From: Candidatus Parcubacteria bacterium
GTDB taxonomy: Bacteria; Patescibacteriota; Patescibacteriia; Patescibacteriales; UBA12075
Reading direction: 5' to 3'
DNA: 59,043 nucleotides
Assembly: GCA_002869165.1 (NCBI GenBank)
Contig: PKTK01000009.1
Location: forward strand, 1-59,043
Shown in pieces: positions 13,160-57,611 of this stretch. Position 1 is the stretch's first letter. Each line of letters opens with the position of its first letter. The translations under genes and the position numbers were made by a program. A model generated the notes under the pieces. The model made no database searches, was not told the DNA's origin, and saw only the letters and a list, made by a program, of their open reading frames with translations.

Positions 13160-13195
13160 CTACACAAATAGATCTTTAAAAAAAGGAGAGAATAG

Positions 13196-13726
13196 ATGAA
13201 GAAAATTGAACTTAGTAGAAAGTTTACATTTTTATTTATTGGTTTTTTAGGATTGATTCTTGCATTTAATTTAGCGATGTTGATGGGCAATATCTTAGAA
13301 AAAATTACCTATAGCATGTCGAGCATTTATCTTTTAATATGTCTGAGTGTAATTATTTTTTCTGTGCTTGTGTTTTTGTTTTTTTATATTAATATTTTGA
13401 CATATGAAGCAGCCTTAAAAAGACAAAAAGATAATTTTAAAAAACTAAACGAAAGTAAAAAGAAATACGAATATATTTATTCCTTAAATAAAGAGGATTT
13501 TGTTCAATATGTAAAAGAGAATTTTAGTCTGATTCATGAAAAAGAACAGGATTTCAAATTATCATTAAAAGAAGGAATTGACTTGATTTTTGATGAAAAT
13601 GAAATAAAGGAAAAAACTTGGAAGAAAATTCAGGAAAAAAGAAACAATATATTTAACCAAAAAACCCTAAAAAAACCGTGGCAGTATAGTTTTCTAGCTA
13701 GGATGCTTCGACATAAAGAATATTAG
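13196..13726 (+). CDS. Hypothetical membrane protein (2 TM), SD-led
   Basis: ORF preceded by AAAAAGGAGAG; two hydrophobic helices then a charged tail. Confidence 0.65.
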   Translation: MKKIELSRKFTFLFIGFLGLILAFNLAMLMGNILEKITYSMSSIYLLICLSVIIFSVLVFLFFYINILTYEAALKRQKDNFKKLNESKKKYEYIYSLNKEDFVQYVKENFSLIHEKEQDFKLSLKEGIDLIFDENEIKEKTWKKIQEKRNNIFNQKTLKKPWQYSFLARMLRHKEY

Positions 13727-13845
13727 TTGCAAGCTAAGTTTCAGTATTTTGCTGAAATATTTTTATTGATATTTTATAGATCAAATTGGTATTCAAAACT
13801 ATATTACTAATTGTTGTTTTATTTTTAAATAAATGGAGGTTTTTT

Positions 13846-14241
13846 ATGATAAGTTTAGTTATATCTGGTTTGGTTGGATTTTGTTTAATTTCAATTGTCT
13901 GTTTAGGCTTTATAAAAAGAGCTAGAAAATATGAGCAATTTCGTGGATATCAAGAAAGATACATAGGTGCTGACCATGGTCTCCCTTGTACATCAGTTAT
14001 TTACTTTGGGGACGATTTGGTTGAAGAAATTGTAAAACAGAAATATGTAATGAATCCAATAAATGGAGAAAAGATATTTTGGGATGATGTAAGACATGTT
14101 AATGAAAAAGAACCCTATTGTAAAATAATTTCTATGTTTGAATATGGTTGCTCCGATCTAGATAAAATAACAAGGAGTATTGTATATTTGCCGCTCGAGG
14201 AATGCAATGCTTTAATTCGTAAAAAACTTGATTTACCATAA
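13846..14241 (+). CDS. Hypothetical protein with N-terminal TM anchor, SD-led
   Basis: ATG at 13846 preceded by GGAGG; in frame with track ORF 13786..14241. Confidence 0.65.
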   Translation: MISLVISGLVGFCLISIVCLGFIKRARKYEQFRGYQERYIGADHGLPCTSVIYFGDDLVEEIVKQKYVMNPINGEKIFWDDVRHVNEKEPYCKIISMFEYGCSDLDKITRSIVYLPLEECNALIRKKLDLP

Positions 14242-14247
14242 GTGCAT

Positions 14248-14284
14248 AAGACTTCGTTAATTCGGAGTCTTTTTTATTTGTCAA
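14248..14284 (+). terminator. Terminator hairpin fused to a -35 (TTGTCA); imperfect direct repeat of 13100-13137
   Basis: aagacttcgttaattcggagtcttttttatttgtcaa, followed by TATAAT after a 17-bp spacer. Confidence 0.75.
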
Positions 14285-14312
14285 AAAAACAATGCTTGAT
14301 TATAATAAAAAT

Positions 14313-15062: not shown

Positions 15063-17948
15063 TTATGTGCTGATGGCTTTTTTCAAGAACTTGCCAGTAT
15101 GACTTTCTTTGCATTCAGCTACTTCAAGAGGTGTTCCTTCGACCACTATCTCACCACCTTTGTCTCCACCTTCTGGTCCCATGTCTATAATGTGATCAAC
15201 TGATTTTATTACATCTAGATTATGCTCAATTATCAATATTGTATTTCCTTTGTCAGCAAGTTTGTTTAGAACTCCAAGAAGCCTCTTAATATCGTCAATA
15301 TGTAGACCAGTGGTAGGTTCATCTAGAATGTAGATGGTTTTACCCGTTGCTCGTCTGGATAGTTCGGTGGCTAGTTTGACTCTTTGGGCTTCTCCACCTG
15401 ATAGAGTCGTTGCAGATTGACCAAGTTTGATATATCCAAGTCCCACCTCTACTAGAGTTTTGAGCTTGTTGTGAATAGCTGGGATGTTTTTGAAAAAGAA
15501 ACAAGCATCTTCAATCGTCATATTGAGAACATCAGATATATTTTTGCCTTTATAGTGAATATCTAGAGTTTCTTTGTTGAATCTAGAACCGTGACAAACC
15601 TCACACTCCACATAAACATCAGGCAAAAACTGCATTTCGATCTTTACCATACCGTCACCGTTACAGGCTTCACATCTTCCGCCTATTACATTGAATGAAA
15701 ATCTGCCAGCTTTGTAGCCTTTAATTTTTGATTCAGGTAGACTAGCAAAAAGATCTCTGATAGGAGTAAAGGCACCGGTATAGGTAACTGGATTTGATCT
15801 AGGAGTTCTGCCAATAGGAGATTGGTCAATATTAATAACTTTATTAATATATCCTAGCCCTTCGATAGAATCATGTTTTCCAGGATCATCTTTGGCGCGA
15901 TAAAATTTTTTGTTCAAAGACTTGGCTAATATGTCAGTCATCAGAGTTGATTTACCAGAACCGGATACTCCAGTGATAGCAATAAATTTTCCCAAAGGAA
16001 TTTTTACATCTATGTTTTTTAGATTGTGCTCCTTGGCTCCTTTTATGATAATGTTTTTATTTAAACCTTTGCGAAACTTTTTTGGTATTTCAATTTTTAA
16101 TTCTCCAGACAAATACTTTCCTGTTAGAGATTTCTTGTTCGATTTTATTTTTGCTGGAGTGCCATGAGCAATGATTTCACCACCCTTAGCCCCAGCCCCA
16201 GGTCCAACATCAATTATATAGTCTGAAGCTTGCATAGTGGCATCATCATGCTCGACTACAATTACAGTATTACCATTATCTCTAAGTGTCTTTAAAGTTT
16301 TTATCAGCTTGTCATTATCTCTTTGGTGAAGGCCAATTGATGGCTCATCCAGGATGTAGAGAACACCAACTAGTTTGGTGCCGATTTGATTAGCGAGTCT
16401 AATTCGTTGCGCTTCACCACCTGAGAGAGTATTAGCAGCTCTATCTAGAGTTAGATAATTTAGACCAACATTAAGTAAAAACTCAAGTCTTGAACAGATT
16501 TCTTTTATTATTTGATTTGATATTTTTTTGTCTCTGGCACTTAAACTATTACCAGTAGCTAATTTTTCAAAATACTTTTTAGCATCTCTTATGGTTTTGG
16601 TAGAGACATCGTGTATAGATTCGTCTAATATAGTTACACCCAAAACTTCTTTTTTTAGTCTTTTTCCTCCACAAGCAGGACAAGGCAGGACTCTCATATA
16701 TTGTTCAATATCTTTTCTAATATAATCAGAGTCAGTTTGTTGGTACCTTCGTTCCAGATTATTGATAACTCCTTCAAAGCCTGTGGCCAACTCTCCTTGG
16801 AAGCGGTCACTTTCATATTCTACATTGTAATTTTTGTCACCAGAACCGTAGAGAACTATATCAAGTTGTTTTTTGCTCAAGTCTTTAATGGGAGTATTTA
16901 AATCAAAGCCATTGTTTTCTGCCACAGTTCCTAAGATGCGCATGTGCCAGGTCTGTCCGCTAGTATGAGCATGCGACCACGGTTTGATAGCACCTTGAGC
17001 AATGGTCAAGTTTGGATTTAGAATTAGTTTAGGGTCTATCTCTTGCTTAGTTCCTAGTCCTGAACACTCTTCACAAGCACCGTGAGGAGAGTTAAAAGAA
17101 AAGCTTCTTGGCTCAAGTTCATTTAACGAAATACCACAGTCTGGGCAAGCAAAAAGTTGAGAAAAAGTAATAGCAGGATCTTTTTTGGTGGCCTTTTCCA
17201 TTTTTTCAGCCTCCAATATACTTACCAATCCATCAGAATACTCTAGTGCTTTTTCAATTGAATCAATTAAACGAGCTTTATCGTCTTTGTCAGCGCTTAT
17301 TACAAGTCTATCTATTACAATGTCTAGATTGTGTTTTTTTTGCTTGTTTATTTCCAGATCATTGAATTCTTGCAAGCGAAGAACAGTACCATCAAAGCGG
17401 ACTCGTTTGAAACCAGCTTTAGCTATTGGGGTGATATGATTTTTGTGCTCACCTTTTTTGTCTTTTACAATCGGTGAAAGAACTAATATATCTTTGTCTA
17501 AAAATTTCTTTTCAATTTGTTTGACCATTTCATCAATAGCGAATGGTTTGATAATATTTCCACAGTCAGGACAATGAGGCACACCAATACGAGCAAAAAG
17601 AAGACGCATGTAGTCATAAATTTCAGTTACTGTTCCAACGGTTGAGCGAGGGTTGCGGGGAGCAGTTTTTTGGTCAATGGAAATAGCTGGAGAGAGCCCC
17701 TCAATAGAATCAACATCAGGTTTGTCCATAAGGCCAAGAAACTGCCTAGCATAGGCAGACAGAGACTCTACATATCTTCTCTGTCCTTCAGCGTAGATTG
17801 TATCAAAAGCAAGAGAGGATTTACCTGATCCAGATAGACCAGTGATTACCACAAATTTGTCTCTTGGTATTTCTACATCAACGTTTTTAAGATTATGTAC
17901 CCGAGCACCTTTTACAACAATTGATGTTTTTTTGTTATTTTTCGCCAT
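15063..17948 (-). CDS. uvrA: Excinuclease ABC subunit A
   Basis: [23 protein letters not shown], two LSGGE signatures, Zn fingers; 961 aa. Confidence 0.98.
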
Positions 17949-18339: not shown

Positions 18340-19460
18340 ATGGATATACAATTAATTATTCAAATACTTATAGTTATAGCTCTTGGTGTGGTTATTTACC
18401 TTTTGCTTAACAAAAAAGATGAGAGCAAAAATGACAATGAAGCCTTGGTGTCTTTGAAAGAAAATATTAAGTTTTTGAGTGAGCAGAATAATAGTCTTAG
18501 AAAAGAGATTGATAATAAATTGTCAGAAACTCACAAAGTATCACAAGATCAGTTTGTGAAAACTGCGGGCATGATGCAGTCAATTAACAAACAAACCCAA
18601 GAAGCCATGAATGCCGTACATAAACAAAGCCAAGACGTAATAGCTCAAGTTACAGAAAAGCTTACCAAGCTTGATGAGACCAACAAGCAGGTTGTGAATT
18701 TTTCATCTCAGCTTCAGAATTTGCAGGATATATTAAAAATCCAAAACAACGTGGAGTATTGGGAGAGTATTATCTAGAAGAAACACTCAAGAATGTTTTG
18801 CCACCAAATTCTTACGAAATGCAGTATAGTTTCAAGGACGGCTCGATTGTTGATGCGATTGTTAAAGTGAAAGACAAGATTATTCCGATCGATTCTAAGT
18901 TTTCACTTGAAAACTATGAAAGAATTTTGAATTGCAACAACAAAGAAGAAAGAGAAAAGTTAGAACGAGCCTTTAAGCAAGACTTGAAGATTCGCATTGA
19001 TGAAACAAGCAAATATGTAAAGCCCAATGAAGGTACGATGGATTTTGCTTTTATGTTTATTCCTTCAGAGTCAATTTATTATGATTTACTTATAAACAAA
19101 GTTGGAGCAGTTCAGGTAAATACTCGAGATTTGATTGAGTATGCCTTCAAAGACAGACGAGTTATTATAGTTTCACCAACATCATTTTTGGCTTATTTAC
19201 AAACTGTACTTCAGGGCCTTAGAGCTTTACAAATTGAGGAGAGTGCCAAGGAGATCAAGTCCAATGTTGAAAAATTAGGTAGACACATTCTAAGTTATGA
19301 GTCATTTATCAAAAAACTTGGCACATCTATGTCAACTACTGTTAATCATTACAACAATGCTTATAAAGAATTTAATAAAATAAATAAAGATGTGTTGAGA
19401 ATTGCAGGTGGTGAGAACGAGGTTGATCCGATGGTAATCGATAGACCAAAGACAGAGTAA
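18340..19460 (+). pseudogene. rmuC: DNA recombination protein RmuC, split by a 1-nt frameshift in the A5 run at 18735-18739
   Basis: Adding one A gives LKNPKQRGVLGEYYLE, the conserved RmuC motif; the downstream ORF has PIDSKF, AFMFIPSE and SPT motifs. Confidence 0.85.
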
Positions 19461-30062: not shown

Positions 30063-31091
30063 ATGCAAGACAAACTAGAAAAAATAAAAAAGGAAGCTCT
30101 GGATAAATTAGCTGATATTAAGAAGCTTAATTTACTTGAAGCCCTAGAAAAAGAGTACCTAGGTCGTAAGGGACAGCTTACAGCTATTTTAAGAAACCTA
30201 AGCTCTATGAGTGATGAGGACAAGAAAAAAATTGGTAAACTAAGTAACGAGATCAAAGTAGAGCTATCTGAAAAGTTCAAAGAAGCCAAGGATATTATTA
30301 TTGGCAGTGCTCGAGGGGGAAATTATGTAGATGTTAGTATACCAGGACAGAAAATCAAACAAGGACATATTCATCCTATAACTCAAGTAATGGGAGATTT
30401 AGAAAAGCTTTTTTCTTCGATGGGCTTTATGGTGTTAGATGGACCAGAACTTGAATCAGATCATTATAATTTTACAGCTCTAAATATTCCAGCTGATCAT
30501 CCTGCTCGTGACATGCAAGACACTTTTTACATTGATACCAAGAACAAAAACAATGAGCACGATATGGTGATGAGAACTCACACTTCACCAGTACAGGTAA
30601 GAGCAATGCAGAAATACGGTGCGCCTATCAAATGTGTGGTACCAGGTAGAGTTTTTAGAAATGAAGCAACTGATGCTACTCATGACACAACCTTTTATCA
30701 GATTGAAGGCTTGATGGTGGGAGAGGGGATTTCTTTGGCCAATCTAAAAGCAGTTTTGCAGGATGTTTTGAATGGAATTTTTCAGGAAGAAGTAGGTATG
30801 CGTATTAGACCAGGCTATTTTCCATTTGTGGAACCAGGTTTAGAAATCGATATCGCTTGCACCATTTGCAAAGGTGCTAAATGCCCAGCTTGTAAACATA
30901 CTGGTTGGTTAGAAATGCTTGGTTCGGGCATGATCCATCCAGAAGTTTTGAAGTATGGAGGAGTTGATCCAGAAAAGTATTCTGGTTTTGCCTTTGGTAT
31001 TGGAGTAACTAGACTCGCTATGATGAAATACAAAATTGATGATATTCGATTGTTTAATTCAGGGGACTTGCGGTTCATGGAACAATTTTAG
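30063..31091 (+). CDS. pheS: Phenylalanine-tRNA ligase alpha subunit
   Basis: HPARDMQDTF, MRTHTSPVQ, YFPFVEP and GFAFGIG motifs. Confidence 0.97.
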   Translation: MQDKLEKIKKEALDKLADIKKLNLLEALEKEYLGRKGQLTAILRNLSSMSDEDKKKIGKLSNEIKVELSEKFKEAKDIIIGSARGGNYVDVSIPGQKIKQGHIHPITQVMGDLEKLFSSMGFMVLDGPELESDHYNFTALNIPADHPARDMQDTFYIDTKNKNNEHDMVMRTHTSPVQVRAMQKYGAPIKCVVPGRVFRNEATDATHDTTFYQIEGLMVGEGISLANLKAVLQDVLNGIFQEEVGMRIRPGYFPFVEPGLEIDIACTICKGAKCPACKHTGWLEMLGSGMIHPEVLKYGGVDPEKYSGFAFGIGVTRLAMMKYKIDDIRLFNSGDLRFMEQF

Positions 31092-31112
31092 TTGGTTTAG
31101 AAAAACATATTG

Positions 31113-31207
31113 TCTACGAAAATACGAATCAGTACAAATTTACAAATAATTTTGTATTATTCATGTAGACTCGATTCGTAAATTCGTACAGATTTGTATT
31201 TTCGTAG
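31113..31207. repeat. Long imperfect inverted repeat of TACGAA-type heptads between pheS and nif3
   Basis: ctacgaaaatacgaatcagtacaaatttacaaa versus ttcgtaaattcgtacagatttgtattttcgtag. Confidence 0.75.
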
Positions 31208-31218
31208 CCTTTAATTAT

Positions 31219-31977
31219 ATGGTAAAAGCACAGGAAATAACAAAATATTGTCAGGAATTATTGAAGACGGAAAATTTCAAGGATTATTGTCATAATGGAA
31301 TGCAAGTTGAGGGAAAAGAGAATGTGGAGAAAATAGTTACGGGCGTAAGCTTATCAGAAAAGCTGATAAAAAAAGCTATAGAAAAAAAAGCTGATATGAT
31401 AATGGTGCATCATGGATTTTTTGGTATGTCTTTTGGTGAGAATCCAGTTATTAAATACGCTTCAAAGAAAAGACTTAAACTAATTTTAGAAAATGATTTA
31501 AATGTTTTAGGTTTTCATTTGCCACTTGATGCTCATATAGAAATAGGCAACAATGTATCTTTAGCTAAGTTGTTTGCTTTGAAAAATATCAAACCTATGA
31601 CCGAAGCCAAAGATAATTACGGTTTTATAGGAGAGAGTGATGACACTAGTTTGGCGGATTTTGTAAAATTAATAGATGAAAAACTAGAAACAAGATCAAC
31701 GATAATAGACGGAGGAAATAAGCAAGTAAAGAAAGTGGTCATAGTTTCTGGTGGTTCAGCTGATTATTTTATGGAGGCAAAGAATTTGGGGGCAGATACT
31801 TTTATTTGTGGTGAACTCAAAGAGCACGTTGTCAGGGAAGCTGAAGAAGCAGAAATAAATGTGATTGCTCCAGGCCACTACAATACTGAAAAGACCGGTA
31901 TACAGAATTTAGGAGAAAAAGTAGCCAAGGAGTTTGGCGTAGAAGTTGAGTTTGTATATATTCCCAATTCAATTTAA
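31219..31977 (+). CDS. Nif3-like dinuclear metal centre protein (YbgI / GTP cyclohydrolase I type 2 family)
   Basis: NGMQVEG, VHHG, HLPLDAH and GHYNTE motifs. Confidence 0.92.
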   Translation: MVKAQEITKYCQELLKTENFKDYCHNGMQVEGKENVEKIVTGVSLSEKLIKKAIEKKADMIMVHHGFFGMSFGENPVIKYASKKRLKLILENDLNVLGFHLPLDAHIEIGNNVSLAKLFALKNIKPMTEAKDNYGFIGESDDTSLADFVKLIDEKLETRSTIIDGGNKQVKKVVIVSGGSADYFMEAKNLGADTFICGELKEHVVREAEEAEINVIAPGHYNTEKTGIQNLGEKVAKEFGVEVEFVYIPNSI

Positions 31978-32016
31978 TTAAAAATTAAAAATTACAAATT
32001 AAAAATTATATAAAGT

Positions 32017-34449
32017 ATGTATTTATCAAATAAATGGCTAAAAGATTTTGTTGATATTCCAAAATCAGTCGAGGGTGATTAGCTAGGTAGACTTCTGACT
32101 GTTCACACTGTTGAGATTGATGGAGTAGAAAAGCAAAATGAAATATACAAGAATATGGTGGTGGGCGAGATCTTGGAAGTAAATAAACACCCTCAGGCAG
32201 ATAAATTACAACTAGCTGTAGTTGACGTGAAAACAGAAAAGTTAAATATTGTTTGTGGAGCCCCAAATATTGAAGTCGGACAAAAAGTTCCAGTTGCTTT
32301 AGTAGGAGCTGTGATGCCAAACGGTATGGAAATCAAGAAAACAAAAATCAGAGGAGAGGAATCTTGTGGTATGATGTGTGCCGAAGATGAGCTAGGACTG
32401 GGAGATGATCATGCTGGCATTATGATTCTTGATGAGAAAGCAAAAATTGGCACAGATTTATCTGATTATTTGGACCTTGATGATGTGATTTATGAAGTTG
32501 ATAACAAATCTATCACCAATAGGCCAGATCTTTGGGGGCACTATGGCATGGCCAGGGAAATTGCAACTTTTTTGGACAAGAAGTTAAAAGTAGATGCGAG
32601 TGAATATGATTTTTCTAAAATTGAGGTAGATAAAAAAGAGCGAAAAATTAAAATCAAGATTGAAGACAAAGAAAAATGTCCAAGATATTCAGCTGTTTCT
32701 ATGGGAGGTATTAAGATCGAGCCATCTCCAAAGTGGTTACAAACCAAACTAATTGCTTCGGGTATTAGGCCAATTTCAAATATTGTTGATGTAACTAATT
32801 ATGTAATGCTTGAGTTGGCTCAACCAATGCACGCTTTTGATGCAAGTAAAATTTCAGACACTAAAGACATAAAAATTGTAGTAAGAAACGCTAAAAAGGA
32901 TGAAATCTTAAAAAGCTTGGATGGTGAAACAAGAGAACTCGATGAAAATGATTTAGTTATAGCGAGTGACAAAGAAGCAATCGCTATTGCTGGTGTTATG
33001 GGGGGTGAGGAAAGTGAAATTGATAGTTCTAGTACAGAAATAGTTCTTGAATCAGCCAATTTTAATTATTTATCTGTTAGAAAAACAGGTCATAAGCTAG
33101 CTCTTCGTTCCGAGGCTTCACAAAGATTTGAAAAATCTCTTGATCAAAGTACTTGTGAACAAGGTTTGGTTAGAGCAGTTGAACTTATCAAGAAAATTTG
33201 TCCAGATGCTTATGTTAGTTCAGAAGTAGCTGACGAAAGCACTTTTTCCTACAAAACAAAAGTACTTGATATTGAGATTGAGTGGATAAACAAAATACTG
33301 GGAGCTGAAATTGAAACCAAGGAAATAGAAAGAATATTGACTAGTCTAGGTTTTGGTTTAGAAATAAAGGATAATATAATGAATGTAAGTATCCCTTCTT
33401 GGCGAGCAACCAAGGATGTTTCTATTAGGGAAGATATAGCCGAAGAAATAGCTCGAATTTATTCATATGAAAAAATAGAGGCCAAGATGCCAGTTCTTGA
33501 AATGAATATTCCTTTGGAAAATGAGAGTAGGGACTTAGATAGTAAAATTCGACGTATTTTGAGTGGTGGGCCAGCCTTGTCCGAGGTTTATAATTATTCT
33601 TTTGTTGGTGAAGAGCAACTCAAACATTTGGGGGTAGATTTTGAAAACTATATTCGTCTGGCCAATCCAATTAGTAGCACCCAAACTATGTTAAGACAGA
33701 GTTTAGCTACTAATCTTTTTGATAATATTAAGAAAAATCAGGCAAGGCATGAGGAGATTGAGTTGTTTGAGATTGGTAGTGTATATTTAAACTTTGATGG
33801 TCAGTACAAGAAGCAAGTAGAGGAGGTGGATGTTTTGCCGGCACAAGAAAAAAGACTTGCTATTGTTATTGCTGGGAAAAATACAGAGGTTTTTATGAGA
33901 GTTAAAAGCGTTTTGAGCTTTTTGCTTGATTCATTTGATTTGCAAGCTGAATACACAGAAAGAGAAACCGCATTTGCTTGGGCAAATAAGATATATTCAA
34001 CTGAAATAAGGGTAGCTGGCAAAGTACTTGGTTTTGTTAATCTATTAGATGAACAAAAAGCCAAAAAAATTGGACTCAAAAAATCAGTAGCAGTTGTTGA
34101 AATAAGCTTAGTTGATCTTTTGGATGTCTTAAACAAACAGGCAAATAAAACATATAAGCAATTTGATAAGTTCCCCCCAGTAGTTAGAGATTTAGCTTTT
34201 GTGGTGAGTGATAAAATAACTTATAATGATATCAAAGCTAAGATGGAAAATTTTCACCAATATATCAAGGAAGTCGAATTGTTTGATGTTTATCAAGGTG
34301 AAGAAGTAGGTAAAGACAAGAAGAGCTTAGCTTTTCATATAAACTACGTAGCAGAAAAAACCTTAACCGGTGAAGAAGTGGACAAAATCCAAACTAAACT
34401 AATCAAAGATTTAGAAAATAATTTTGAAGCTAAGGTAAGAGACTTTTAG
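32017..34449 (+). pseudogene. pheT: Phenylalanine-tRNA ligase beta subunit with an in-frame TAG at 32080-32082
   Basis: MYLSNKWLKDFVDIP..D*LGRLLTVHTVEID is in frame with ORF 32155..34449 (HPQADKL, NRPDL, FDX-ACB C-terminus). Essential gene, so an error is more likely than true inactivation. Confidence 0.92.
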
Positions 34450-35267: not shown

Positions 35268-35462
35268 TTAGATTTTAACAATAGCACCAACTATGCTCGT
35301 AATTAGTATGGTAGTAATGCCAGCCATATAACGAATATTAGTACTTACATCACTTGCCATAGTAATTGTTAGAAGTATTGCCAATATCAACATCACAGGA
35401 ATTTTATATTTTGGATCATGATGAGCAACTCCATCCAAACATTTCAATATTATTCCTTTCAT
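35268..35462 (-). CDS. Small 2-TM hypothetical protein, SD-led
   Basis: ATG at 35462 preceded by AGAGGAG. Confidence 0.6.
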   Translation of the reverse strand: MKGIILKCLDGVAHHDPKYKIPVMLILAILLTITMASDVSTNIRYMAGITTILITSIVGAIVKI

Positions 35463-35598
35463 TTTTTTCTCCTCTTTTGTGTTTTGTCCCAATTTTGATT
35501 TTTTATAATATAATGTACATTTTTTTGTTTTTTTAGAATATCATTTATTAAAGATAATAGCAATAAACAAAGATTGATGTTATTTTAAATTGAATTGG

Positions 35599-35627: not shown

Positions 35628-35687
35628 ATTGGCACATAAATCTAGTTAATTTTATATTGATCATTTAAAAAAAAGGAGAGTGTAGAA

Positions 35688-35900
35688 ATGGGAAACAATG
35701 TGAAGATTGATAATTGTATTGACTGTAGCTATCACAGAGAGCTACCTGATCCTGATCCGGATGACTGGTTTTGTGATGATGATGTTAAAGTTGTTTGCAC
35801 AAAGAAAAAGCCTTCGAAAAACATTACCGTAGCATGTCGACCATACAATACAAGAAATGAATGTGATATTCCAGAGTGGTGCCCAAGATTAAATAATTAG
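35688..35900 (+). CDS. Small Cys-rich (probable metal-binding) hypothetical protein, SD-led
   Basis: CIDC, DPDPDDWFC, CRP, C.IPEWCP; AAAAGGAGAG upstream. Confidence 0.7.
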   Translation: MGNNVKIDNCIDCSYHRELPDPDPDDWFCDDDVKVVCTKKKPSKNITVACRPYNTRNECDIPEWCPRLNN

Positions 35901-36138: not shown

Positions 36139-36273
36139 CTGAGTTTAGCCTCGTGTTCGATAAAAGAATACGAGGTTTTTTGTTTTGTTGACACATTGAT
36201 AATATTATATTAAAGTAAAGCATTGGTCTTTTTATAGTATAAATAAACAAAATAATATCAAAAAGGAGAAATT

Positions 36274-36453
36274 ATGAAAGATAAATTAGCTAATACTATA
36301 ATGGTTTTGATGCTAATGAGTCCATTTTTCATTGCAGGTTTTGAAAAAGTATTCCCCGAGTATACACCTTGGGATGTTAGTAACACAAGAGTCCAAATCT
36401 TGGGCGTCCAGGTAGAGCCAATGAGCACATTGATTTTGATTACTAGTGGTTAA
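36274..36453 (+). CDS. 59-aa hypothetical membrane/secreted peptide, SD-led (not in ORF track)
   Basis: AAAAAGGAG then ATG: MKDKLANTIMVLMLMSPFFIAGFEK..LILITSG*. Confidence 0.55.
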   Translation: MKDKLANTIMVLMLMSPFFIAGFEKVFPEYTPWDVSNTRVQILGVQVEPMSTLILITSG

Positions 36454-36492
36454 AAAAAACGGGGTAACGCTAATTTTAACTAAGGAGGCAAA

Positions 36493-36795
36493 ATGCTTAT
36501 TATTAATAATGCATCATTTCCGGTGATTGCGATGTGTTGGCACAAGCAATATGGCTATGGTGATCAGGAAATAATTGAGCCTAATGAAAGTGAGAATATT
36601 TCTGGTCCTTTTCTTGGTGAAATGGATGGAGGAGAATGTCGTTTGGCCATGCCAGGCGAGATTAGCTGTCATGAAGATGAGGACAATGAAAATGGCTTTC
36701 ATGTATCCAAGGGAAGTCAGCTCAATTTAGGTAATGGAGATTTTGGAGTGATCATTTGGCACTATGAAGATGAGTTGGTGTTAAAGAAGGAATAG
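36493..36795 (+). CDS. Hypothetical protein, SD-led
   Basis: TAAGGAGG five nt before ATG; followed by terminator 36816-36851. Confidence 0.7.
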   Translation: MLIINNASFPVIAMCWHKQYGYGDQEIIEPNESENISGPFLGEMDGGECRLAMPGEISCHEDEDNENGFHVSKGSQLNLGNGDFGVIIWHYEDELVLKKE

Positions 36796-37396: not shown

Positions 37397-37837
37397 CTAT
37401 TTAGCAAGCTTTTTCTCTAAAAAATATTTATGATTTTGTTTTTTGGTAATAACGTAGCCTAACTTTTTATAAAATGACACAGCAGGATTGTTTTCCCATA
37501 CTTCAAGCGTTATTTTGCGATACCTATGCGTTTCAAAGCTTTTCATGATTTGCGAACCAAGTCCTTTTCCTTGATAGAACGGTGTTAAAAATATACGTGA
37601 TACGTATAGATTACGTTTTTGTTCTTTAACTTCGTATAAACCGATTCTACGCTTTCCTCGAAGTAGTATAACCATTTTTCCATAGTCTTTATAAAACTTT
37701 TCATCAAACTTGTTTTTATCAACTGGTTGGAATTTCTCAATCAAAGGAAATAACGTTGTTTTCATTAAACGATACACGAACGCATAGTCGTCTTTTTTAC
37801 ATTTGCGTTTTTTTATATTCATAACGTTTTGAGTCAT
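37397..37837 (-). CDS. GNAT-family N-acetyltransferase
   Basis: YQGKGLGS acetyl-CoA motif; LEVWENNPAVSFYKKLGY. Confidence 0.88.
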   Translation of the reverse strand: MTQNVMNIKKRKCKKDDYAFVYRLMKTTLFPLIEKFQPVDKNKFDEKFYKDYGKMVILLRGKRRIGLYEVKEQKRNLYVSRIFLTPFYQGKGLGSQIMKSFETHRYRKITLEVWENNPAVSFYKKLGYVITKKQNHKYFLEKKLAK

Positions 37838-38320: not shown

Positions 38321-38346
38321 TTATTTTAAATTAAAAAGGTAGGTGT

Positions 38347-38679
38347 GTGATGAAAATAAGAAGAATTCCACATTCATATTTTGTGGAAGTAAAACAGGAG
38401 CTTGACTGGGAGGATGTTCTGCATAAGCTTGGAATAAAATTTCATTCAACCAAGAAAGGAGGAAGTATATACGAGGCAAAGTGTATTCTTCATAATGAAA
38501 ATACACCATCTCTTACTTTCAATCCATACATGTGTGCTTTTCATTGCTTTGGTTGCGGGCAAAGTGGAGATACTTTTAATTTTATTTCCTATGCCTTGAC
38601 CGGAGAGCTATATAACTATGGAAGAGTTTTTCGTTGGTTAAATAAAAATTTCAACATACCCTTACCATGGGACCGCTGA
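38347..38679 (+). CDS. Stand-alone CHC2 zinc-finger protein (DnaG primase Zn-binding-domain-like)
   Basis: CILHNENTPSLT..FHCFGCGQSGD motif; no Toprim domain follows. Confidence 0.85.
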   Translation: MMKIRRIPHSYFVEVKQELDWEDVLHKLGIKFHSTKKGGSIYEAKCILHNENTPSLTFNPYMCAFHCFGCGQSGDTFNFISYALTGELYNYGRVFRWLNKNFNIPLPWDR

Positions 38680-39724: not shown

Positions 39725-41950
39725 TTACTTCGTGTATCCACATCCTTTGGCTGAACATTTTAGTCCATCTTTTGACTCTACTAGTAATGCTCCGCAGTCT
39801 GGACATTTTTCTCCAGTTGGTTTGCCCCAGAGAGCATTTTTGCAGTCAGGGTATTGGTCGCAGGCGTAGAAGGTACCTCTTCGGCTTCGTTTTTGGACGA
39901 ATTCTCCTTTGCCACATTTGTCGCACTTTATGCCAGTTGAGTTGGAGTTTTCTTTGATGCTTTTGATATTCTTACATTTTGGATAGCCTGAACAAGCAAG
40001 AAAATGGCCGAAGCGTCCGTTTTTGATTACCATTGGCTTACCGCATTTGTCACATTCTTCATGTTTGTACTTTTCTTCGAGTGCTTGAGTCTCTTTGTCT
40101 TTTTCTCCAGCGTCAGCCGGTTTGCCGTCTTTGTCCATACCTTTGATGTTTTTGCACTCAGGATAGGCTGAGCAGGCTAGGAATTTGCCGAAACGGCCAG
40201 TTTTGATAATCATTTTTGCGCCACATTTGTCGCATTTTACGTCTGTTTGTTCTTCAGGCATAATATCTTCTTTTTTAAGTTCTTTATCTTTTTTTTCTAA
40301 GTTAGCATGAAATGGTTCATAGAAGTCTTTGATGACTGGTTGCCACATGGTTTCACCTTCAGCGATTTTATCAAGATCAGTTTCTACTTGGGCGGTGAAT
40401 TCATAGTCAACCACTCGAGGGAAATGACCAACTAGTAGATCAGTAACTACATAGGCAATATCAGTTGGATAAAGCTTTTTAGCGTCATCTCTTTGCACGT
40501 AGTTTCTGGTGATAATAGTGGCTAAGGTTGGTGCATAAGTAGAAGGTCGGCCAATGCCGTATTTTTCTAAAATTTTTACAATCCCAGCATCAGAGTATCG
40601 TCCTGGTGGCTTGGTGAAATGTTGTTCTTTGTTTAGATTTTCAAGATCCAGTTCTTCCTTTTCTTTTACATCAGGCAATATTAGTTCTTTTGATTGTTCT
40701 GGATAGATTTTTAAGTAACCATCGAATTTCAAGATTTGACCTGTGGTGCGGAATTGATAGCTAGTACCATCAGCATCTATGTCTATACTGGTTGAGTTTA
40801 CGATTGCTTCAGTCATTTGACTGGCTACTGCTCTTTGCCAAATCAGGGTGTACATCTTCAGCTGTTTAGGATCGAGGCTTGAGCTGAGAATCTCAGGAGT
40901 ATTACCAGCTTCAGTTGGTCTGATAGCTTCATGAGCTTCTTGAGCTCCTTTGGACTTGGTTTTAAATGTTCTTGGTTTTGTAAGTGCGTATTCTTTGCCC
41001 ACATATTCTTCCAAGTGCTTTTTGGCATCATCTAGGAATTTTTGAGATAGATTTAGAGAATCTGTTCTCATATAGGTAATATAGCCTTGTTCATAGAGTT
41101 GCTGAGCTAGCATCATGGTTTGTTTGGCGGAGTAGCCTAGCCAACGATTCGCGGTTTGTTGCAAAGTTGAAGTAGTAAATGGTTTAGGTGGATTCTTTTT
41201 TGTTTCTCTTTTATTAATAGATGAGATAATATACTTAGCACCTTGGAGGTCTTTGGTGATCTTATCTGCTTCAGCTTTGTTTTTGATAGCTAGTTTGTCT
41301 AGAGTTTTACCCTCGATTTTATTTAGCTTAGCTTCAATCTTGTCTTCTTTGTTGTCTTGTTTATTTAGCAGTAAGTCTATGCTCCAGTATTCATCTGGCT
41401 TAAAGGCCTTGATTTCTCTTTCTCTTTCTACGATGAGTCTAACCGCTACTGATTGAACACGTCCGGCTGATAATCCTCTAGCAACCTTTTTCCATAGAAA
41501 AGGGGATAGTTCATAGCCTACTAGTCTATCAAGAACTCTTCTGGCTTGTTGAGCATCCACTAGTCCCATATCAAGTTTACGAGGATTTTTCATCGCTTCC
41601 TCAATAGCACCTTTGGTTATTTCATGAAATACAATCCGCTGGGTTTTGTCTTGGTCGATCTTCAAGGCACTTAGAAGATGCCAAGCAATAGCTTCCCCTT
41701 CGCGGTCTTCATCAGTTGCGAGGATGATGTTATCAGCTTTTTTAGCTAATGTTTTTAGAGCTGTTACCTGTTTTTTGGCTTTGGCAGGTATTTCATAAGT
41801 TGGTTCGAAATTGTTTTCGGTATCAATACCAATCTTGGATTTAGGCAAATCTCTGATATGCCCAAAAGAAGACTCTACTTTGTAGCCTTTGCCAAGAAAT
41901 TTGGTGATTGTCTTCGCCTTGGTAGGCGACTCTACTATTATTAAATTCAT
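39725..41950 (-). CDS. topA: Type IA DNA topoisomerase I with C-terminal Zn-ribbon repeats
   Basis: IVESPTKAKTI, ATDEDREGE, SAGRVQS, ITYMRTDS and GIGRPSTY motifs. Confidence 0.97.
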   Translation of the reverse strand: MNLIIVESPTKAKTITKFLGKGYKVESSFGHIRDLPKSKIGIDTENNFEPTYEIPAKAKKQVTALKTLAKKADNIILATDEDREGEAIAWHLLSALKIDQDKTQRIVFHEITKGAIEEAMKNPRKLDMGLVDAQQARRVLDRLVGYELSPFLWKKVARGLSAGRVQSVAVRLIVEREREIKAFKPDEYWSIDLLLNKQDNKEDKIEAKLNKIEGKTLDKLAIKNKAEADKITKDLQGAKYIISSINKRETKKNPPKPFTTSTLQQTANRWLGYSAKQTMMLAQQLYEQGYITYMRTDSLNLSQKFLDDAKKHLEEYVGKEYALTKPRTFKTKSKGAQEAHEAIRPTEAGNTPEILSSSLDPKQLKMYTLIWQRAVASQMTEAIVNSTSIDIDADGTSYQFRTTGQILKFDGYLKIYPEQSKELILPDVKEKEELDLENLNKEQHFTKPPGRYSDAGIVKILEKYGIGRPSTYAPTLATIITRNYVQRDDAKKLYPTDIAYVVTDLLVGHFPRVVDYEFTAQVETDLDKIAEGETMWQPVIKDFYEPFHANLEKKDKELKKEDIMPEEQTDVKCDKCGAKMIIKTGRFGKFLACSAYPECKNIKGMDKDGKPADAGEKDKETQALEEKYKHEECDKCGKPMVIKNGRFGHFLACSGYPKCKNIKSIKENSNSTGIKCDKCGKGEFVQKRSRRGTFYACDQYPDCKNALWGKPTGEKCPDCGALLVESKDGLKCSAKGCGYTK

Positions 41951-52087: not shown

Positions 52088-52825
52088 GTGATGAAAAAAA
52101 TAATAATAATTTTTTTTATACTATTTAGCACTAAGTATTTGTGGGCTGGGGATTGTGGTGTTAAATTAGAAATATTGAGCATAAAAGAGGCGATTAACAG
52201 GGTGGGTAGTGAAAAAAGAATAAGAGAATACAAGGCCTTTGAAAATCGAATTCGTTTAGTAAATCTAATTTCGTCTGATAAGAAAAAAAAGTTTAAAACA
52301 GTTGCTTCAAAAAGATTTGATATTGAGAATATTTATTATCCGGTTGATCAGGAAATTTATGATAAAGTTGACAGGTTTTTAACTAAAGTAATGACAGGGT
52401 ATCATTTAAATTTTAAGAAGATAGAGAATGAAAAACAAGCTGAAAAATTTTTCACAATGATTGCTGAAAAAATTGTTAAAGAACTTGACATGCAGATTGT
52501 TGATGAGCAGTTACTCTTAAGTAGGGCAATTACTAGTCATATCTTTGATTGTGACACATTAGCTACTTTGTATCTAGCAGTTGGTCAGATTTTGAATTTA
52601 CCTATTCGTGCAGTTGCGATCCCAAATCATGTGTTTGTGAGATTTTATTTTGAGGATGGCACGTATTTTAATTGGGAGACTAGGACATGGTCTTCAAAAG
52701 GTAATCAGATTTATATTGAAGAAAAGTGTTTGGAGTATAATTATTTTGAAGTTTTGGATTGTGATAGCTTTATTGAAAAGTTTATAGGAACCGACCTGGC
52801 TTTTTACTATTATAGTAATTTGTAA
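52088..52825 (+). CDS. Secreted transglutaminase-like (SirB1/Transglut_core2-like) protein, SD-led
   Basis: Signal peptide; FDCDTLATLYLAV..LNLPIRAVAIPNHVFVRF Cys/His pattern; own TTGACA promoter at 52030. Confidence 0.65.
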   Translation: MMKKIIIIFFILFSTKYLWAGDCGVKLEILSIKEAINRVGSEKRIREYKAFENRIRLVNLISSDKKKKFKTVASKRFDIENIYYPVDQEIYDKVDRFLTKVMTGYHLNFKKIENEKQAEKFFTMIAEKIVKELDMQIVDEQLLLSRAITSHIFDCDTLATLYLAVGQILNLPIRAVAIPNHVFVRFYFEDGTYFNWETRTWSSKGNQIYIEEKCLEYNYFEVLDCDSFIEKFIGTDLAFYYYSNL

Positions 52826-53590: not shown

Positions 53591-53600
53591 ATATATTATA

Positions 53601-53674
<74 letters not shown>

Positions 53675-53702
53675 CAAGAAATAAAATTTATTATGTAGAA
53701 GA

Positions 53703-54782: not shown

Positions 54783-56616
54783 TAAAGAACTCGTCAAATC
54801 ATTAGCGTGGAAGTGGCTACTTGTATTAGTAGCTATTTTTTTAATTCTAATTATAGCTTCTGGAGTTTTTTTGATTTATTTTGAAAAAACTTATGAGAAT
54901 AGTTATTATCCAGGCACTTCTATTGCTGGTGTTAATGTCGAAGGTCTAAACAGGTTAGAAGCAGAAGATCTTTTGAACGAAAAAATAGATAATATGCATG
55001 AAAAAGGTGTGATTTTTTCTTATTTGAATGAACAAGCTAGGCTGGATATTTTGCAAAGTGCTGGAGCTGACATTGCTGTGCCAATCGCTTTGTTTGATTT
55101 TGAGAGTGCTATTGATGAGGCTTTTAATTATCCTAGAACTGAAGATAGTTTAACGAATTTTTATTTGAAATATTCATTATGGAAAGATCAAGGAAATTTT
55201 CCTATAGCTGTTAATTTGAATGAAGAAATGGTTGATGATTTTTTTAAGATTAATTTTTCTCATTTTTCCACTCCAGCCAAGAACGCTAGCTTGGTATCAA
55301 CTAGCTCACCATATACAAAAGAAGTAGAGTTTGGTGTCAGCCAGGAAGTTTATGGACAGGTTTTAGATATTGAGAAGGCCAAGCAAAAATTACGAGAGCA
55401 ACTTGCCTTACTTGAGTATAACAATATTGAATTAGAGGCTACTATAGAGTTACCAGAAATTGCAAAAAAAGATGTTGAAAATATTGAAGTAATAGCTAAT
55501 AAGTATTTAGATAAAGCTCCAATTGATCTTGTATATGAAGATAATTCCTGGACAGTGAGCCGTGATGATTTGTTAAATATTATGCAAATCAAGAAAAATG
55601 AGGCAGGCAAGATATATATAGGTTTAGATTTGGAACTAGGTTCCAGGTATCTTTTTGATAATATTGCTAGCGAAATAAATATAGAAGCAGCAGATGCTAA
55701 ATTTGAAATAGTAGATGATCGAGTAGAGAAGTTTCAACCGAATCATGATGGTTTAGAGCTTGATTTGTATAGTAGTTTAGCTAAGATTGAAAAAGTCATT
55801 GCAACAAATACTGAAGAAAAAATAGACTTGATCACCAAAGTAATAAAAAGCAAAGATTCAACCGAGGAAATGGAAAATTTGGGAATTACCGAGATTATTG
55901 GAGTAGGCCATTCGAATTTTTATGGCAGTCCTGCTAATCGTGTACACAATATCTCAGTAGGGGCTGAGAGTGTTAATGGTACTTTAGTGGCCCCAGGTGA
56001 AGAATTCTCACTTTTATCTGTGCTTGGAACGATAGATGGTACAACAGGATATAAACAAGAACTAGTTATCAAAGATAATCAAACTATTGCTGAATATGGT
56101 GGAGGTTTGTGTCAGATAGGTACAACAGTATTTCGTGGTACAGTAGACTCAGGACTTCCGGTAACTATGAGGCGTAATCACTCCTATCGAGTTAGTTATT
56201 ACGAGCCTGCTGGAACTGATGCAACTATTTATGATCCATGGCCAGACTATAAATTCAAAAACGATACACCTAGTCATGTTTTGATCTTATCTCGTATCGA
56301 AGGCACTGATCTGTATTTTGATTTTTGGGGAACCAATGATGGTCGGGTAGCTAGTGCAACTGATCCCGTAATTTATAATATCAAACGACCACCACCCACC
56401 AAGATAATTGAAACACTTGATTTAGAGCCTGGAGTAAAAAGGTGTACCGAGCATGCTCACAATGGAGCTGATGCCTATTTTGATTATGGTGTAAGGTATG
56501 CTGATGGTACTCAGGTAAATGAAAGGTTTAAGTCGCATTATTCACCATGGCAAGAGGTCTGCCTCTTGGGAGTTGAAGCTCTATCTACTTCCACTGAAGC
56601 AGTATTAAGTAATTAA
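54772..56616 (+). CDS. VanW-family protein with N-terminal TM and putative peptidoglycan-binding domains
   Basis: NRVHNI..PGEEFS..GYKQ..YGGGLCQ..RRNHS..GTDAT..DYKFKNDT. Confidence 0.9.
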   Translation: MKLNKELVKSLAWKWLLVLVAIFLILIIASGVFLIYFEKTYENSYYPGTSIAGVNVEGLNRLEAEDLLNEKIDNMHEKGVIFSYLNEQARLDILQSAGADIAVPIALFDFESAIDEAFNYPRTEDSLTNFYLKYSLWKDQGNFPIAVNLNEEMVDDFFKINFSHFSTPAKNASLVSTSSPYTKEVEFGVSQEVYGQVLDIEKAKQKLREQLALLEYNNIELEATIELPEIAKKDVENIEVIANKYLDKAPIDLVYEDNSWTVSRDDLLNIMQIKKNEAGKIYIGLDLELGSRYLFDNIASEINIEAADAKFEIVDDRVEKFQPNHDGLELDLYSSLAKIEKVIATNTEEKIDLITKVIKSKDSTEEMENLGITEIIGVGHSNFYGSPANRVHNISVGAESVNGTLVAPGEEFSLLSVLGTIDGTTGYKQELVIKDNQTIAEYGGGLCQIGTTVFRGTVDSGLPVTMRRNHSYRVSYYEPAGTDATIYDPWPDYKFKNDTPSHVLILSRIEGTDLYFDFWGTNDGRVASATDPVIYNIKRPPPTKIIETLDLEPGVKRCTEHAHNGADAYFDYGVRYADGTQVNERFKSHYSPWQEVCLLGVEALSTSTEAVLSN

Positions 56617-56633
56617 TATTTAATTAGCATGTG

Positions 56634-56692
56634 TGTCATCCTGAGCGAATATGAAGCCCGCCCGCCGGACTTCGCTTGCGCTCAGGATGACA
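56634..56692. repeat. TGTCAT..ATGACA element
   Basis: tgtcatcctgagcgaa..ttcgcttgcgctcaggatgaca. Confidence 0.85.
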
Positions 56693-56748
56693 CAATCGTA
56701 TAAATAAAAAAGGGAAATACGCGTAAGCGAATTTCCCCTTTTGCTTTT

Positions 56749-57018
56749 TTAATCGTCGTTTTCAAAGAAACCGGTTGTTTCAAAAGACCCATCTTTGCGA
56801 ATAACGATCTCAACGTCAACCTTTGAATAAAGGTCAAAGTCAAGGATGTAGCCAGAAATTACAGCCACTTCTTTTTTGTTGTTTCCGCATACTCGAAATG
56901 AAGTGATGGTCATCTCGCTCCATTCTTTTTCTTCAGGGCGTCTTACTTTTGCAACACAACCTACCCCAAAAGAAAAAAACTCTGAAAAAACAAGTTTAAA
57001 AGTTTCTTTTCTACTCAT
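56749..57018 (-). CDS. Small hypothetical protein, SD-led
   Basis: ACAGGAG upstream of ATG 57018; overlaps the end of the ClpP-like gene. Confidence 0.55.
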   Translation of the reverse strand: MSRKETFKLVFSEFFSFGVGCVAKVRRPEEKEWSEMTITSFRVCGNNKKEVAVISGYILDFDLYSKVDVEIVIRKDGSFETTGFFENDD

Positions 57019-57586
57019 GCTCTTTCTCCTGTTCACCTGTAATTATTTCATCAATAAGACCAAGTTTAAAAGCTTTCTTGGCTGTTATCTCGTAATATTT
57101 CAAACATTCAGAGCGAATTTTTTTTCTGCTCAAACCTGTTTTTTCTACCAGTATATTTTCAACTCGTTTATGACTTTTTTTACTATCTTTTATTAGAGCT
57201 TTGAGCTTTTTCTTTTTTATCAAAGTGACAAGACTGATGTTGCTTAATACAATATAATGAATCAGAAAAGAGCTATGCGCATAAGACTTTCTTTTATTAC
57301 AGGCTTGAAGAATAGTAACAGCTGCAGATTTTGCAAAGCCAATTGCAATACCAGTAGTCTTGCCAGGATAGTTACTGATCATGTCATAGATATCAAGTGA
57401 TGCTTTAGTATTTCCGCCGTTGCTTTTGATGTATATTGTAATGTCAGGATTTCCCCAGATAGCAAGAATTGCCATTGCTTTTTGAAATATAATAACCAAG
57501 TCATCGCATATTTCACTTTTGATAACTATAATATTCTTTTTTAAAAGTTCAAAATCAAATTCATCCAGTAGTTCTTCTATTTTCAT
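57011..57586 (-). CDS. Divergent ClpP-family protease subunit, SD-led
   Basis: ITIYIKSNGG, GFAKSAA (Ser), FLIH (His) and LGLIDEI motifs; GGAGG before ATG. Confidence 0.8.
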   Translation of the reverse strand: MKIEELLDEFDFELLKKNIIVIKSEICDDLVIIFQKAMAILAIWGNPDITIYIKSNGGNTKASLDIYDMISNYPGKTTGIAIGFAKSAAVTILQACNKRKSYAHSSFLIHYIVLSNISLVTLIKKKKLKALIKDSKKSHKRVENILVEKTGLSRKKIRSECLKYYEITAKKAFKLGLIDEIITGEQEKEHE

Positions 57587-57611
57587 TTTTTCCTCCGGTT
57601 TGTTTTATTTT

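Follow-up and report, generated by a model that had tools for sequence, protein, structure and literature searches.

Contig PKTK01000009.1 of a Candidatus Parcubacteria genome, analyzed here over its full 59,043 nucleotides (nt) and called the window, holds conserved genes that lack a Shine-Dalgarno (SD) sequence and a set of mostly accessory genes that are led by a strong one, and the same division runs through the whole genome. Strong SDs precede 22% of lineage-specific genes and at most 1% of true core genes, and the 3' end of the 16S rRNA keeps an intact anti-SD. We consider it likely that these patterns reflect two routes of translation initiation, with conserved genes being SD independent and selected, functional SDs being confined to rpsU (encoding ribosomal protein bS21), a few surface genes, and horizontally circulating cassettes. 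In this two-route system, conserved genes of the organism, its family, and its order would be translated without SD:anti-SD pairing, and the anti-SD would serve a minority of mRNAs: that of rpsU, those of a few surface genes with very high expression (e.g., the major pilin gene), and those of about 140 flexible-genome genes. Each flexible-genome gene would be a self-contained cassette made of a near-consensus sigma-70 promoter, a short leader often carrying GATCTTT or GTTCATT, the extended SD AAAGGAGG at the optimal spacing of 5-6 nt, and an ATG, and such cassettes would move horizontally with universal, host-independent expression signals.

SD-led and SD-less genes in the window

The window is the entire contig C10 of the focal genome, G000 (1.43 Mb, 33% GC, 96% complete). 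HisS-anchored loci place G000 among Patescibacteria (Candidate Phyla Radiation [CPR]), nearest to Candidatus Falkowbacteria, Parcubacteria BM507, and similar genomes. Its single 16S rRNA gene ends in ...GGAUCACCUCCUUUCUAG, a canonical, long, Bacillus-like anti-SD tail, and the pairing energies given for the window were computed against this tail.

The original prediction, made from the window alone, placed SDs in front of 12 open reading frames (ORFs), and all 12 sites are present. At 11 of them (ORFs starting at 13196, 13846, 35462(-), 35688, 36274, 36493, 43948(-), 51706, 52088/52091, 57018(-), and 57586(-)), AGGAG, GGAGG, or GAGGT lies 5-8 nt 5' of ATG or GTG, with energies of -8.2 to -12.3 kcal/mol. 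The 12th, at ORF 38347, reads AAAGGTAGGTG (-7.8 kcal/mol) and is bulged, resembling the rpsU leaders of relatives. Several of the sites lie downstream of TTGACA-17-TATAAT-like promoters. The SD-led ORFs are mostly orphans, the exceptions being a CHC2 zinc-finger protein, a transglutaminase-like secreted protein, and a ClpP-family paralogue, for which the housekeeping clpP of relatives is not the reciprocal best match. For ORF 13196, we found no homologue in the two relatives used throughout (G005 and G033, described below) and no confident Pfam family. The SD-led ORFs are as follows (lengths in amino acids [aa], energies in kcal/mol):

13184-13726, + strand: accessory ORF, 176 aa, membrane-like; TTGACA-17-TAATAT promoter, GATCTTT leader motif, AAAAAAAGGAG 7 nt 5' of ATG 13196; -9.3
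13832-14241, + strand: accessory ORF, 131 aa; TGGAGGT 6 nt 5' of ATG 13846; -10.5
35268-35475, - strand: small orphan ORF, 64 aa; AGAGGAG 6 nt 5' of ATG 35462; -9.4
35670-35900, + strand: small orphan ORF, 70 aa; GATCATT leader motif, AAAAAAAAGGAGAG 5' of ATG 35688; -12.3
36260-36453, + strand: small orphan ORF, 59 aa; AAAAGGAG 5 nt 5' of ATG 36274; -9.3
36478-36795, + strand: orphan ORF, 100 aa; TAAGGAGG 4-5 nt 5' of ATG 36493; -11.1
38330-38679, + strand: ORF, 110 aa, CHC2 (DnaG-type) zinc finger; leader AAAAGGTAGGTG, an rpsU-type bulged SD; -7.8
43733-43962, - strand: small orphan ORF, 71 aa; ATAAGGAGAG 7 nt 5' of ATG 43948; -8.2
51650-51990, + strand: orphan ORF, 94 aa; TTGACA promoter, AAAAAAAGGAGG 6 nt 5' of GTG 51706; -12.2
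52040-52825, + strand: ORF, 244-245 aa, signal-peptide-like N-terminus, transglutaminase-like core; TTGACA promoter, GTTCATT leader motif, AAAAAAAGGAGG; -12.2
56749-57031, - strand: orphan ORF, 89 aa; CAGGAGAA 7 nt 5' of ATG 57018, within the 3' end of the upstream gene; -8.9
57011-57600, - strand: ClpP-family protease paralogue, 191 aa; GGTCTTT leader motif, CCGGAGG 5 nt 5' of ATG 57586

The core genes of the window had been predicted to lack SDs, and those that were called do have A/T-rich leaders, with energies of -5.9 kcal/mol or weaker. NCBIfam confirms the identity of amrA, uvrA, pheS, pheT, topA, pth, and a yqeY-like gene; the gene predicted as suhB encodes an inositol-monophosphatase (SuhB)-family protein by NCBIfam, with best matches under the curated cut-offs. 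Two accessory genes that had been described as SD-less, a GNAT acetyltransferase gene and the ORF starting at 39269, indeed have no SD. Among the SD-less genes are the following:

15063-17948, - strand: uvrA, core; leader ...AAAAAACATTACTTAATATAGT-ATG, +1.3 kcal/mol
30063-34449, + strand: pheS (30063-31091), a 252-aa ORF predicted as nif3 (31219-31977), and pheT (32155-34449)
37397-37837, - strand: GNAT acetyltransferase, accessory
39725-41950, - strand: topA, core, assigned by NCBIfam
44559-45143, - strand: pth, core, assigned by NCBIfam; conserved neighbor of the noncoding RNA (ncRNA) gene described below
49250-50668, + strand: hisS, core, directly 5' of rpsU

SD usage separates conserved from lineage-specific genes genome-wide

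We called 1284 genes in G000 with a dicodon model that is blind to upstream sequence and therefore to SDs, and we set conservation classes by tblastn against two whole relatives, G005 (same family, other genus, 1.17 Mb) and G033 (same order, other family, 0.70 Mb). To count as strong, an SD had to be a 5-mer of AGGAGGTG, with a spacer of 3-11 nt and an energy of -8.5 kcal/mol or lower, a definition that 2.5% of in-frame interior start codons also pass. If the original prediction were wrong, core and accessory genes should have similar SD frequencies throughout the genome; the frequencies are 2.7% for genes conserved in both relatives (13/476) and 22% for genes conserved in neither (122/551, where the interior-start null expects 33), with genes conserved in one relative at 14/257. 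The contrast between the first two classes (Fisher P = 1e-22) holds in all four length bins. When inspected, the SD matches in the conserved class proved to be mostly internal false starts, the genuine ones being those of rpsU, the major type IV pilin gene, and glmS, which leaves the rate among true core genes at 1% or less. In total, about 138 genes carry strong, optimally spaced SDs, 122 of them lineage-specific. The split recurs with the relatives as focal genomes: SDs lead 12/451 conserved and 63/296 lineage-specific genes of G005, and 3/412 and 17/152, respectively, of G033.

The signal is positional. SD 5-mers peak 6-15 nt 5' of first start codons, where two adjacent 5-nt bins hold 103 and 72 of them compared to roughly 5-20 per bin elsewhere upstream, and the pairing energies are bimodal. 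Any depletion of SD-like 5-mers within coding sequence is slight, at a ratio of 0.92 to synonymous shuffles, with control G-rich 5-mers at 0.95-0.99. As a probe of anti-SD use in elongation, we examined prfB (RF2; G000 C11:23478-24575, - strand), which proved to be one uninterrupted ORF lacking a programmed +1 frameshift site.

Start codons of core genes show a different context. At 234 core starts anchored by the N-termini of orthologues, G stays at or below 0.15 at each position from -30 to -1, A reaches 0.56-0.64 at -6 to -2 and is also favored at -11, and U reaches 0.73 at -1, giving an SD-less consensus of AAAAAU-AUG. U at -1 is found in 57-62% of SD-less genes compared to a fraction of 0.26 among SD-led genes. 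In 11-12% of SD-less genes, a -10-like TAnnnT hexamer occupies precisely positions -12 to -7 relative to the ATG; the figure is about 5% at neighboring offsets and 0% for SD-led genes. This suggests that a minority of SD-less genes, about 7%, may be leaderless.

These data bear on the concern that the split is an artefact of misplaced core starts, of spurious ORFs behind SD-like words, or of mis-binned contigs. Start codons are uncertain in an unannotated metagenome-assembled genome, as the internal false starts among conserved-gene SD calls illustrate, but such false calls inflate the core class and not the accessory one. The ORF caller did not see SDs, the 234 anchored core starts have no G-rich signal, the positional peak and the spacing are sharp, and SD-led islands are interspersed between core genes on the same contigs, the window included. 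We regard an artefactual origin as scarcely credible. The original prediction had also held that SD-led genes form a distinct translational class, and this description is borne out by the bimodal energies, the tight spacing, the differing start context, the same split in two further genomes, and the inheritance of the SD with the gene (see below).

SD-led genes share leaders, promoters, and accessory cargo

The SD-led genes are uniform in their upstream regions. In 84 of the 138, the distance between the start codon and the first G of GGAGG is 10-11 nt, and an A-run precedes GGAGG to give AAAGGAGG, the complement of CCUCCUUU. Several of the window ORFs had been said to share a leader behind a consensus promoter, and both elements extend to the genome: [AG][ATG]TC[TA]TT occurs 28-40 nt 5' of the start in 35/138 SD-led genes compared to 4% of others, and TTGACn-N16-18-TAnnnT, scanned for within 110 nt upstream, in 27% compared to 2-3%. 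The leader motif, typically GATCTTT or GTTCATT, lies just 3' of the -10 box (25% of SD-led genes versus 4% of other genes); examples in the window are at 13166-13172, 35664-35670, and 52063-52069. Possible roles for this motif are those of an initial transcribed sequence, of a processing site, or, through its UCUUU, of a weak cis partner to AAAGG in the SD.

SD-led genes also cluster, forming 41 adjacent SD-SD pairs compared to 14.5 +/- 3.4 expected. By Pfam, their cargo includes a PrkA-DUF444-SpoVR operon, TrpF, a Nuo51-like protein, and a thymidylate-kinase-family enzyme; by eye, we recognized sugar-nucleotide and glycosyl-transfer enzymes, radical-SAM proteins, lipoproteins, and a 1785-aa surface protein. 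In the operon (G000 C14:141920-149318; PrkA, DUF444 [YeaH], SpoVR, and a second PrkA-like protein), every gene is SD-led.

The SD-led proteins are shorter than others (median, 139 aa), and 28% have a hydrophobic N-terminus compared to 14-21% of others, a weak enrichment. Together with the extended SDs of the major pilin gene and of a gene for a conserved secreted protein, this could mean that SDs mark very highly translated proteins, or small secreted or membrane proteins, whatever their origin. Beyond rpsU, the pilin gene, and glmS, however, no gene conserved in both relatives, a set expected to include the other ribosomal-protein and chaperone genes, has a real SD; among these, the GroEL gene was examined individually. 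The class includes ordinary cytoplasmic enzymes and proteins of 400-1700 aa, and the core/accessory contrast appears in every length bin. An account by expression level or protein type is thus improbable, and given the weak signal-peptide/membrane enrichment, we rejected protein type as the main explanation.

SDs are conserved with their genes

Among reciprocal-best orthologues of G000 and G005 aligned at the N-terminus, the SD is kept in 5/7 SD-led genes, compared to 10/382 SD-less genes that have one in the other genome (P = 8e-7), even though several of these SD-led pairs are only about 30-40% identical. The prkA family is found in 13 of the 151 genomes of our order-level survey, and all eight full-length prkA homologues inspected, from seven other genomes in several families (8/8), have GGAGG or AGGAG 5-8 nt 5' of the ATG. 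ORF 36493 occurs in 2/151 genomes, its one homologue being in a different family.

From these comparisons, the SDs appear to be functional and under selection and not decaying relics, and the anti-SD appears to be in use, because they are kept in diverged orthologues and in all inspected prkA homologues, while a useless G-rich motif should decay at 33% GC. The SD-led genes are not necessarily recent arrivals, since selection would maintain their SDs. Rather than tracing back to one recent import, the dichotomy is stable and extends across the lineage. We infer that the SDs of the cassettes are used for 30S recruitment and that the portability of the cassettes is the reason that the SDs are kept.

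The composition of the SD-led genes speaks to their origin in two ways. Their GC content is native (0.347 versus 0.346), and their GC at third codon positions (GC3) is slightly higher (0.28-0.30 versus 0.26; median, 0.283; P = 1e-5), with lower codon adaptation and a lower coding score (0.25 versus 0.30-0.38). The suggestion in the original prediction that SD-led genes were recently imported stands only in part. Import is favored by the islands, the patchy distribution, the GC3 shift, and the lower codon adaptation; recency is not, given the native GC and the persistence of the SD in orthologues of about 30-40% identity and in all prkA-bearing genomes that were checked. The same features that point to import could be read as signs of recent arrivals from SD-using donors whose SDs are leftovers with no role in the new host. 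The retention of SDs across orthologues and families, their tight optimal spacing in a genome in which G-rich motifs should erode fast, the native GC, and the recurrence of the pattern in three genomes all argue against such leftovers, which we consider very unlikely.

Patchiness, clustering, and consensus promoters are consistent with self-sufficient cassettes that circulate horizontally. Like genomic islands and other horizontal cassettes, the SD-led genes are clustered, patchy, and perhaps slightly atypical in codon usage, with accessory metabolic, surface, and defense-type cargo. They differ in that their mark is a translation-initiation signal plus a consensus promoter rather than base composition, and in that this mark is conserved with the genes across long divergence.

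Several points weigh against the two-route system with circulating cassettes. Accessory status is not sufficient for an SD, as 78% of lineage-specific genes have none. The compositional deviation of the SD-led genes is small, involving GC3 with GC unchanged. No integrase or mobility gene was present among the scanned window ORFs of the islands, and searches of viral contigs with the ClpP-like protein and the zinc-finger protein returned no close relatives. "Lineage-specific" is defined by only two relatives, both from other genera, and our home-made ORF caller misses genes shorter than 50 aa. Finally, the SD criteria are strict: in a control of the pipeline on the same hisS neighborhood, they found SDs at 34% of genes in Clostridia, compared to 4% in close CPR relatives, so that absolute rates are underestimated and only the contrasts carry meaning. 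Two further searches concern mobility, with no att sites identified in the window and PHROGs giving matches to primase- and ClpP-type domains only.

rpsU carries an extended SD

As predicted, rpsU stands out among the core genes of the window by having an SD:

50686-50941, + strand: rpsU (bS21, 77 aa, GTG start at 50708) with leader CTAGAAAGGAAGGTG at 50686-50700

The leader lies 5' of the GTG, pairs at -17 to -21 kcal/mol, and is complementary over 14 nt to the 16S tail CACCUCCUUUCUAG, one bulged base aside. All PDB matches of the product are bS21 chains. The bulged design, CTAGAAAGG(N)AGGTG with the start codon 5-7 nt later, recurs in nearly all relatives examined. Of their distinct rpsU leaders, 48/49 pair with an 18-nt tail at -12 kcal/mol or stronger (median, -20), and rpsU ranks by energy in the top 3 of all genes in G000 and in the top 2 in G005. 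At the class level, the exact bulged motif is found in 8/301 genomes (with two control matches), a strict pattern that undercounts variants; the precise bulged form is therefore mostly a trait of G000's family and order. Similar extended leaders precede the major type IV pilin gene (G000 C4:62267-62743; TTAGAAAGGTGGTGAAAT-ATG) and the gene for a 61-aa glycine-rich protein (MVNMPNRNGTGPEGKGPR...; G000 C14:118499-118684; CTAGAAAGAGGGGTGG).

The bS21 of the order, 77 aa long, has a conserved, less basic C-terminal extension, ...EYL(K/R)KIGKLKEEPRxRW, in which one Tyr is invariant and the last residue is Trp; of 35 residues, 13 are basic and 4 acidic. This bS21 is missed by the NCBIfam models at E = 1e-5, a possible reason for its reported absence from many Parcubacteria. 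In G033 (C1:~47935-48010), the 16S tail is a variant, GGAUUAUCUCCUUUCUAG, with UCUCC for CCUCC (UAUCUCC); the rpsU leader of this genome keeps CUAGAAAGG and has lost the GGUG half, a suggestive but single case with no compensating change.

An enlarged bS21 has been described in CPR ribosomes, along with the loss of the CCTCCT motif in part of Parcubacteria (PMC9297842). The variant tail of G033 parallels that loss. The anti-SD of G000, on the other hand, is intact, and that paper does not deal with the SD usage of genes, a core/accessory split, or the rpsU leader.

The closest mechanistic parallel is in Bacteroidia. In Flavobacterium johnsoniae, the 16S tail is kept sequestered by bS21 together with bS18 and bS6, and it is on ribosomes without bS21 that rpsU is translated, via an extended SD (PMC7797042, PMC9976891, PMC13000453). 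G000 resembles these bacteria in keeping a canonical anti-SD while conserved genes lack SDs, in an A-rich start context, and in a lineage-conserved rpsU SD that is complementary to most of the 16S 3' tail. Sequestration by bS21, bS18, and bS6 was established for the Bacteroidia, and the likeness of G000 to them is one of sequences. The differences are equally clear. The phylum is Patescibacteria, the promoters are of the sigma-70 type (TTGACA/TATAAT) and not of the Bacteroidia type, and a one-base bulge is a conserved feature of the rpsU SD. Flavobacteriales typically have an SD on no gene other than rpsU (PMC9976891), whereas about 10% of genes in G000, nearly all lineage-specific, have strong, optimally spaced ones.

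This parallel raises the possibility of a gated regulon, which may coexist with the two-route system: the anti-SD would be mostly unavailable, as in Bacteroidia, and the SD-led class and rpsU would be translated mainly when it is free, for example, on ribosomes lacking bS21. In pairing with 14 nt of the 16S tail, the rpsU leader bears the hallmark of bS21 autoregulation as described for Flavobacterium (PMC9976891, PMC13000453), and the C-terminal extension of bS21 with its invariant Tyr and terminal Trp adds to the case. The Bacteroidia residues that contact the 16S tail, however, have been described as unique to that class (PMC7797042). Binding of the tail there involves Tyr54 and a less basic C-terminal domain of bS21, Phe50, Asn56, and Lys37 of bS18, and the C-terminal helix of bS6. 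About 140 optimally spaced SDs are hard to square with ribosomes that are generally SD blind. In Escherichia coli, moreover, bS21 promotes SD use rather than blocking it. Gating, whether by bS21 or by the RNA described below, is something we would entertain but rather doubt.

A predicted ncRNA gene next to pth encodes anti-SD loops

The interval between dprA and pth contains a predicted ncRNA gene:

43275-43540, + strand: ncRNA gene with promoter TTGACA-N14-TGCTAAGTT (TGCTAA), two long hairpins, and a closing U-run

Its apical loops, UUUUUUUCCUCCUUGU and UUACCCUCCUUGA, are copies of the 16S anti-SD (CCUCCUU), and its fold has a z-score of -11. In the same dprA-pth interval of G005 and of a further genome, G001, the same promoter is followed by a hairpin, 30-45 bp long, whose loop is CCUCCUUG. 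Scanning the order for TTGACA-N13-15-TGCTAA-N60-90-CCTCCTTG gave 12/151 genomes, compared to none for the reversed control, and the motif forms the apical loop in 11 of the 12. In an alignment of ten sequences, the CCUCCUUG loop is invariant and 17/21 stem pairs show compensatory changes. An Rfam scan of the window gave no match for the ncRNA, with tRNA-Val as the only hit, and nhmmer with the ncRNA yielded no match in G005, G033, or G001. The matches from BLAST against 40 relatives were short; the five that were inspected were not hairpins, and at least some resemble the antisense of SD leaders. Counterparts in relatives were therefore located by structure, synteny, and pattern.

The ncRNA is a possible candidate regulator of SD-led mRNAs. 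Given the absence of SDs from core genes, any RNA pairing with AAGGAGG would be selective for the SD-led class. It would thereby offer a putative mechanism for the conditional translation that the original prediction had named as an alternative to recent import. C-rich-loop small RNAs that pair with SD regions include RsaE/RoxS in Bacillota and 6C in Actinomycetota. The ncRNA is like them in being structured and, by prediction, independently transcribed, with a C-rich unpaired loop complementary to the SD as its sole conserved sequence. Unlike them, it falls outside all Rfam families and its loop is an exact copy of the anti-SD (CCUCCUU), and its potential targets would be the flexible genome, since SDs are almost confined to accessory genes.

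A gated regulon could alternatively work through this RNA, which would repress the SD-led class as a group by pairing of its loops with AAGGAGG and make the flexible genome a conditionally translated set. The promoter, U-run, fold, synteny, distribution across the order, and covarying stem all suit such a role, and either switch, bS21 or the RNA, would hit the SD-led class alone, SDs being absent from core genes. It is, however, trivial to predict that a CCUCC loop pairs with any SD, and regulation by the ncRNA is a prediction.

A broader and more speculative view is that the cell has two separable initiation channels, one SD independent for housekeeping mRNAs (AAAAAU-AUG context, with some leaderless) and one reliant on the anti-SD for rpsU and the flexible genome, and treats access to the anti-SD as a regulated resource, combining bS21 occupancy of the 30S platform, rpsU autoregulation, and the anti-SD-copy RNA. 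The loops of the ncRNA would titrate contiguous AAGGAGG, and the interrupted, bulged 14-nt site of rpsU would escape. We hold this combination to be doubtful; if true, the cell could switch its whole accessory set up or down in one step, with core translation untouched.

Implications for CPR genomes

The mechanism of SD-independent translation with a kept anti-SD has been resolved only for Bacteroidia, and the same hallmarks in Patescibacteria point to either convergence or a much wider use. What is new in G000 is that the SD survives as a mark of the flexible genome, packaged with consensus promoters. Our literature search found no description of a core/accessory SD split in CPR, the nearest report noting only anti-SD loss and enlarged bS21 in some Parcubacteria (PMC9297842). 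For annotation, gene finders trained on SDs will mis-set starts in CPR genomes, and the presence of an SD can help to flag accessory or horizontally mobile genes. We hypothesize that a symbiont with a small genome may control its accessory genes globally via anti-SD availability, with the ncRNA as a concrete candidate.

Other features of the window

One further feature borders an accessory stretch:

53601-53675, + strand: tRNA-Val(GAC), bordering the accessory stretch at 51.6-53.4 kb

Three protein-coding loci of the window have unusual reading frames. At 7475-10057 (+ strand), the G005 orthologue is longer at the N-terminus, such that residue 1 of ORF 8000-10057 aligns to its residue 170; a separate 164-aa ORF (7475-7969) lies directly 5' in G000, and the gene may be split. 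ORF 8000-10057 has GAGGTG-TAT-ATG at its start and was flagged by the SD caller. At 18340-19460 (+ strand), predicted as rmuC, there are two overlapping ORFs (145 aa and 233 aa), both conserved in relatives, with a frameshift being possible. Finally, der (engA; 45321-46769, - strand) has an in-frame TAA (...QALGFLK*ADIILFLVDARDG...) at about 46466-46468, where the G005 orthologue is a single 508-aa ORF; the stop may reflect an error in sequencing, a recent nonsense mutation, or readthrough.

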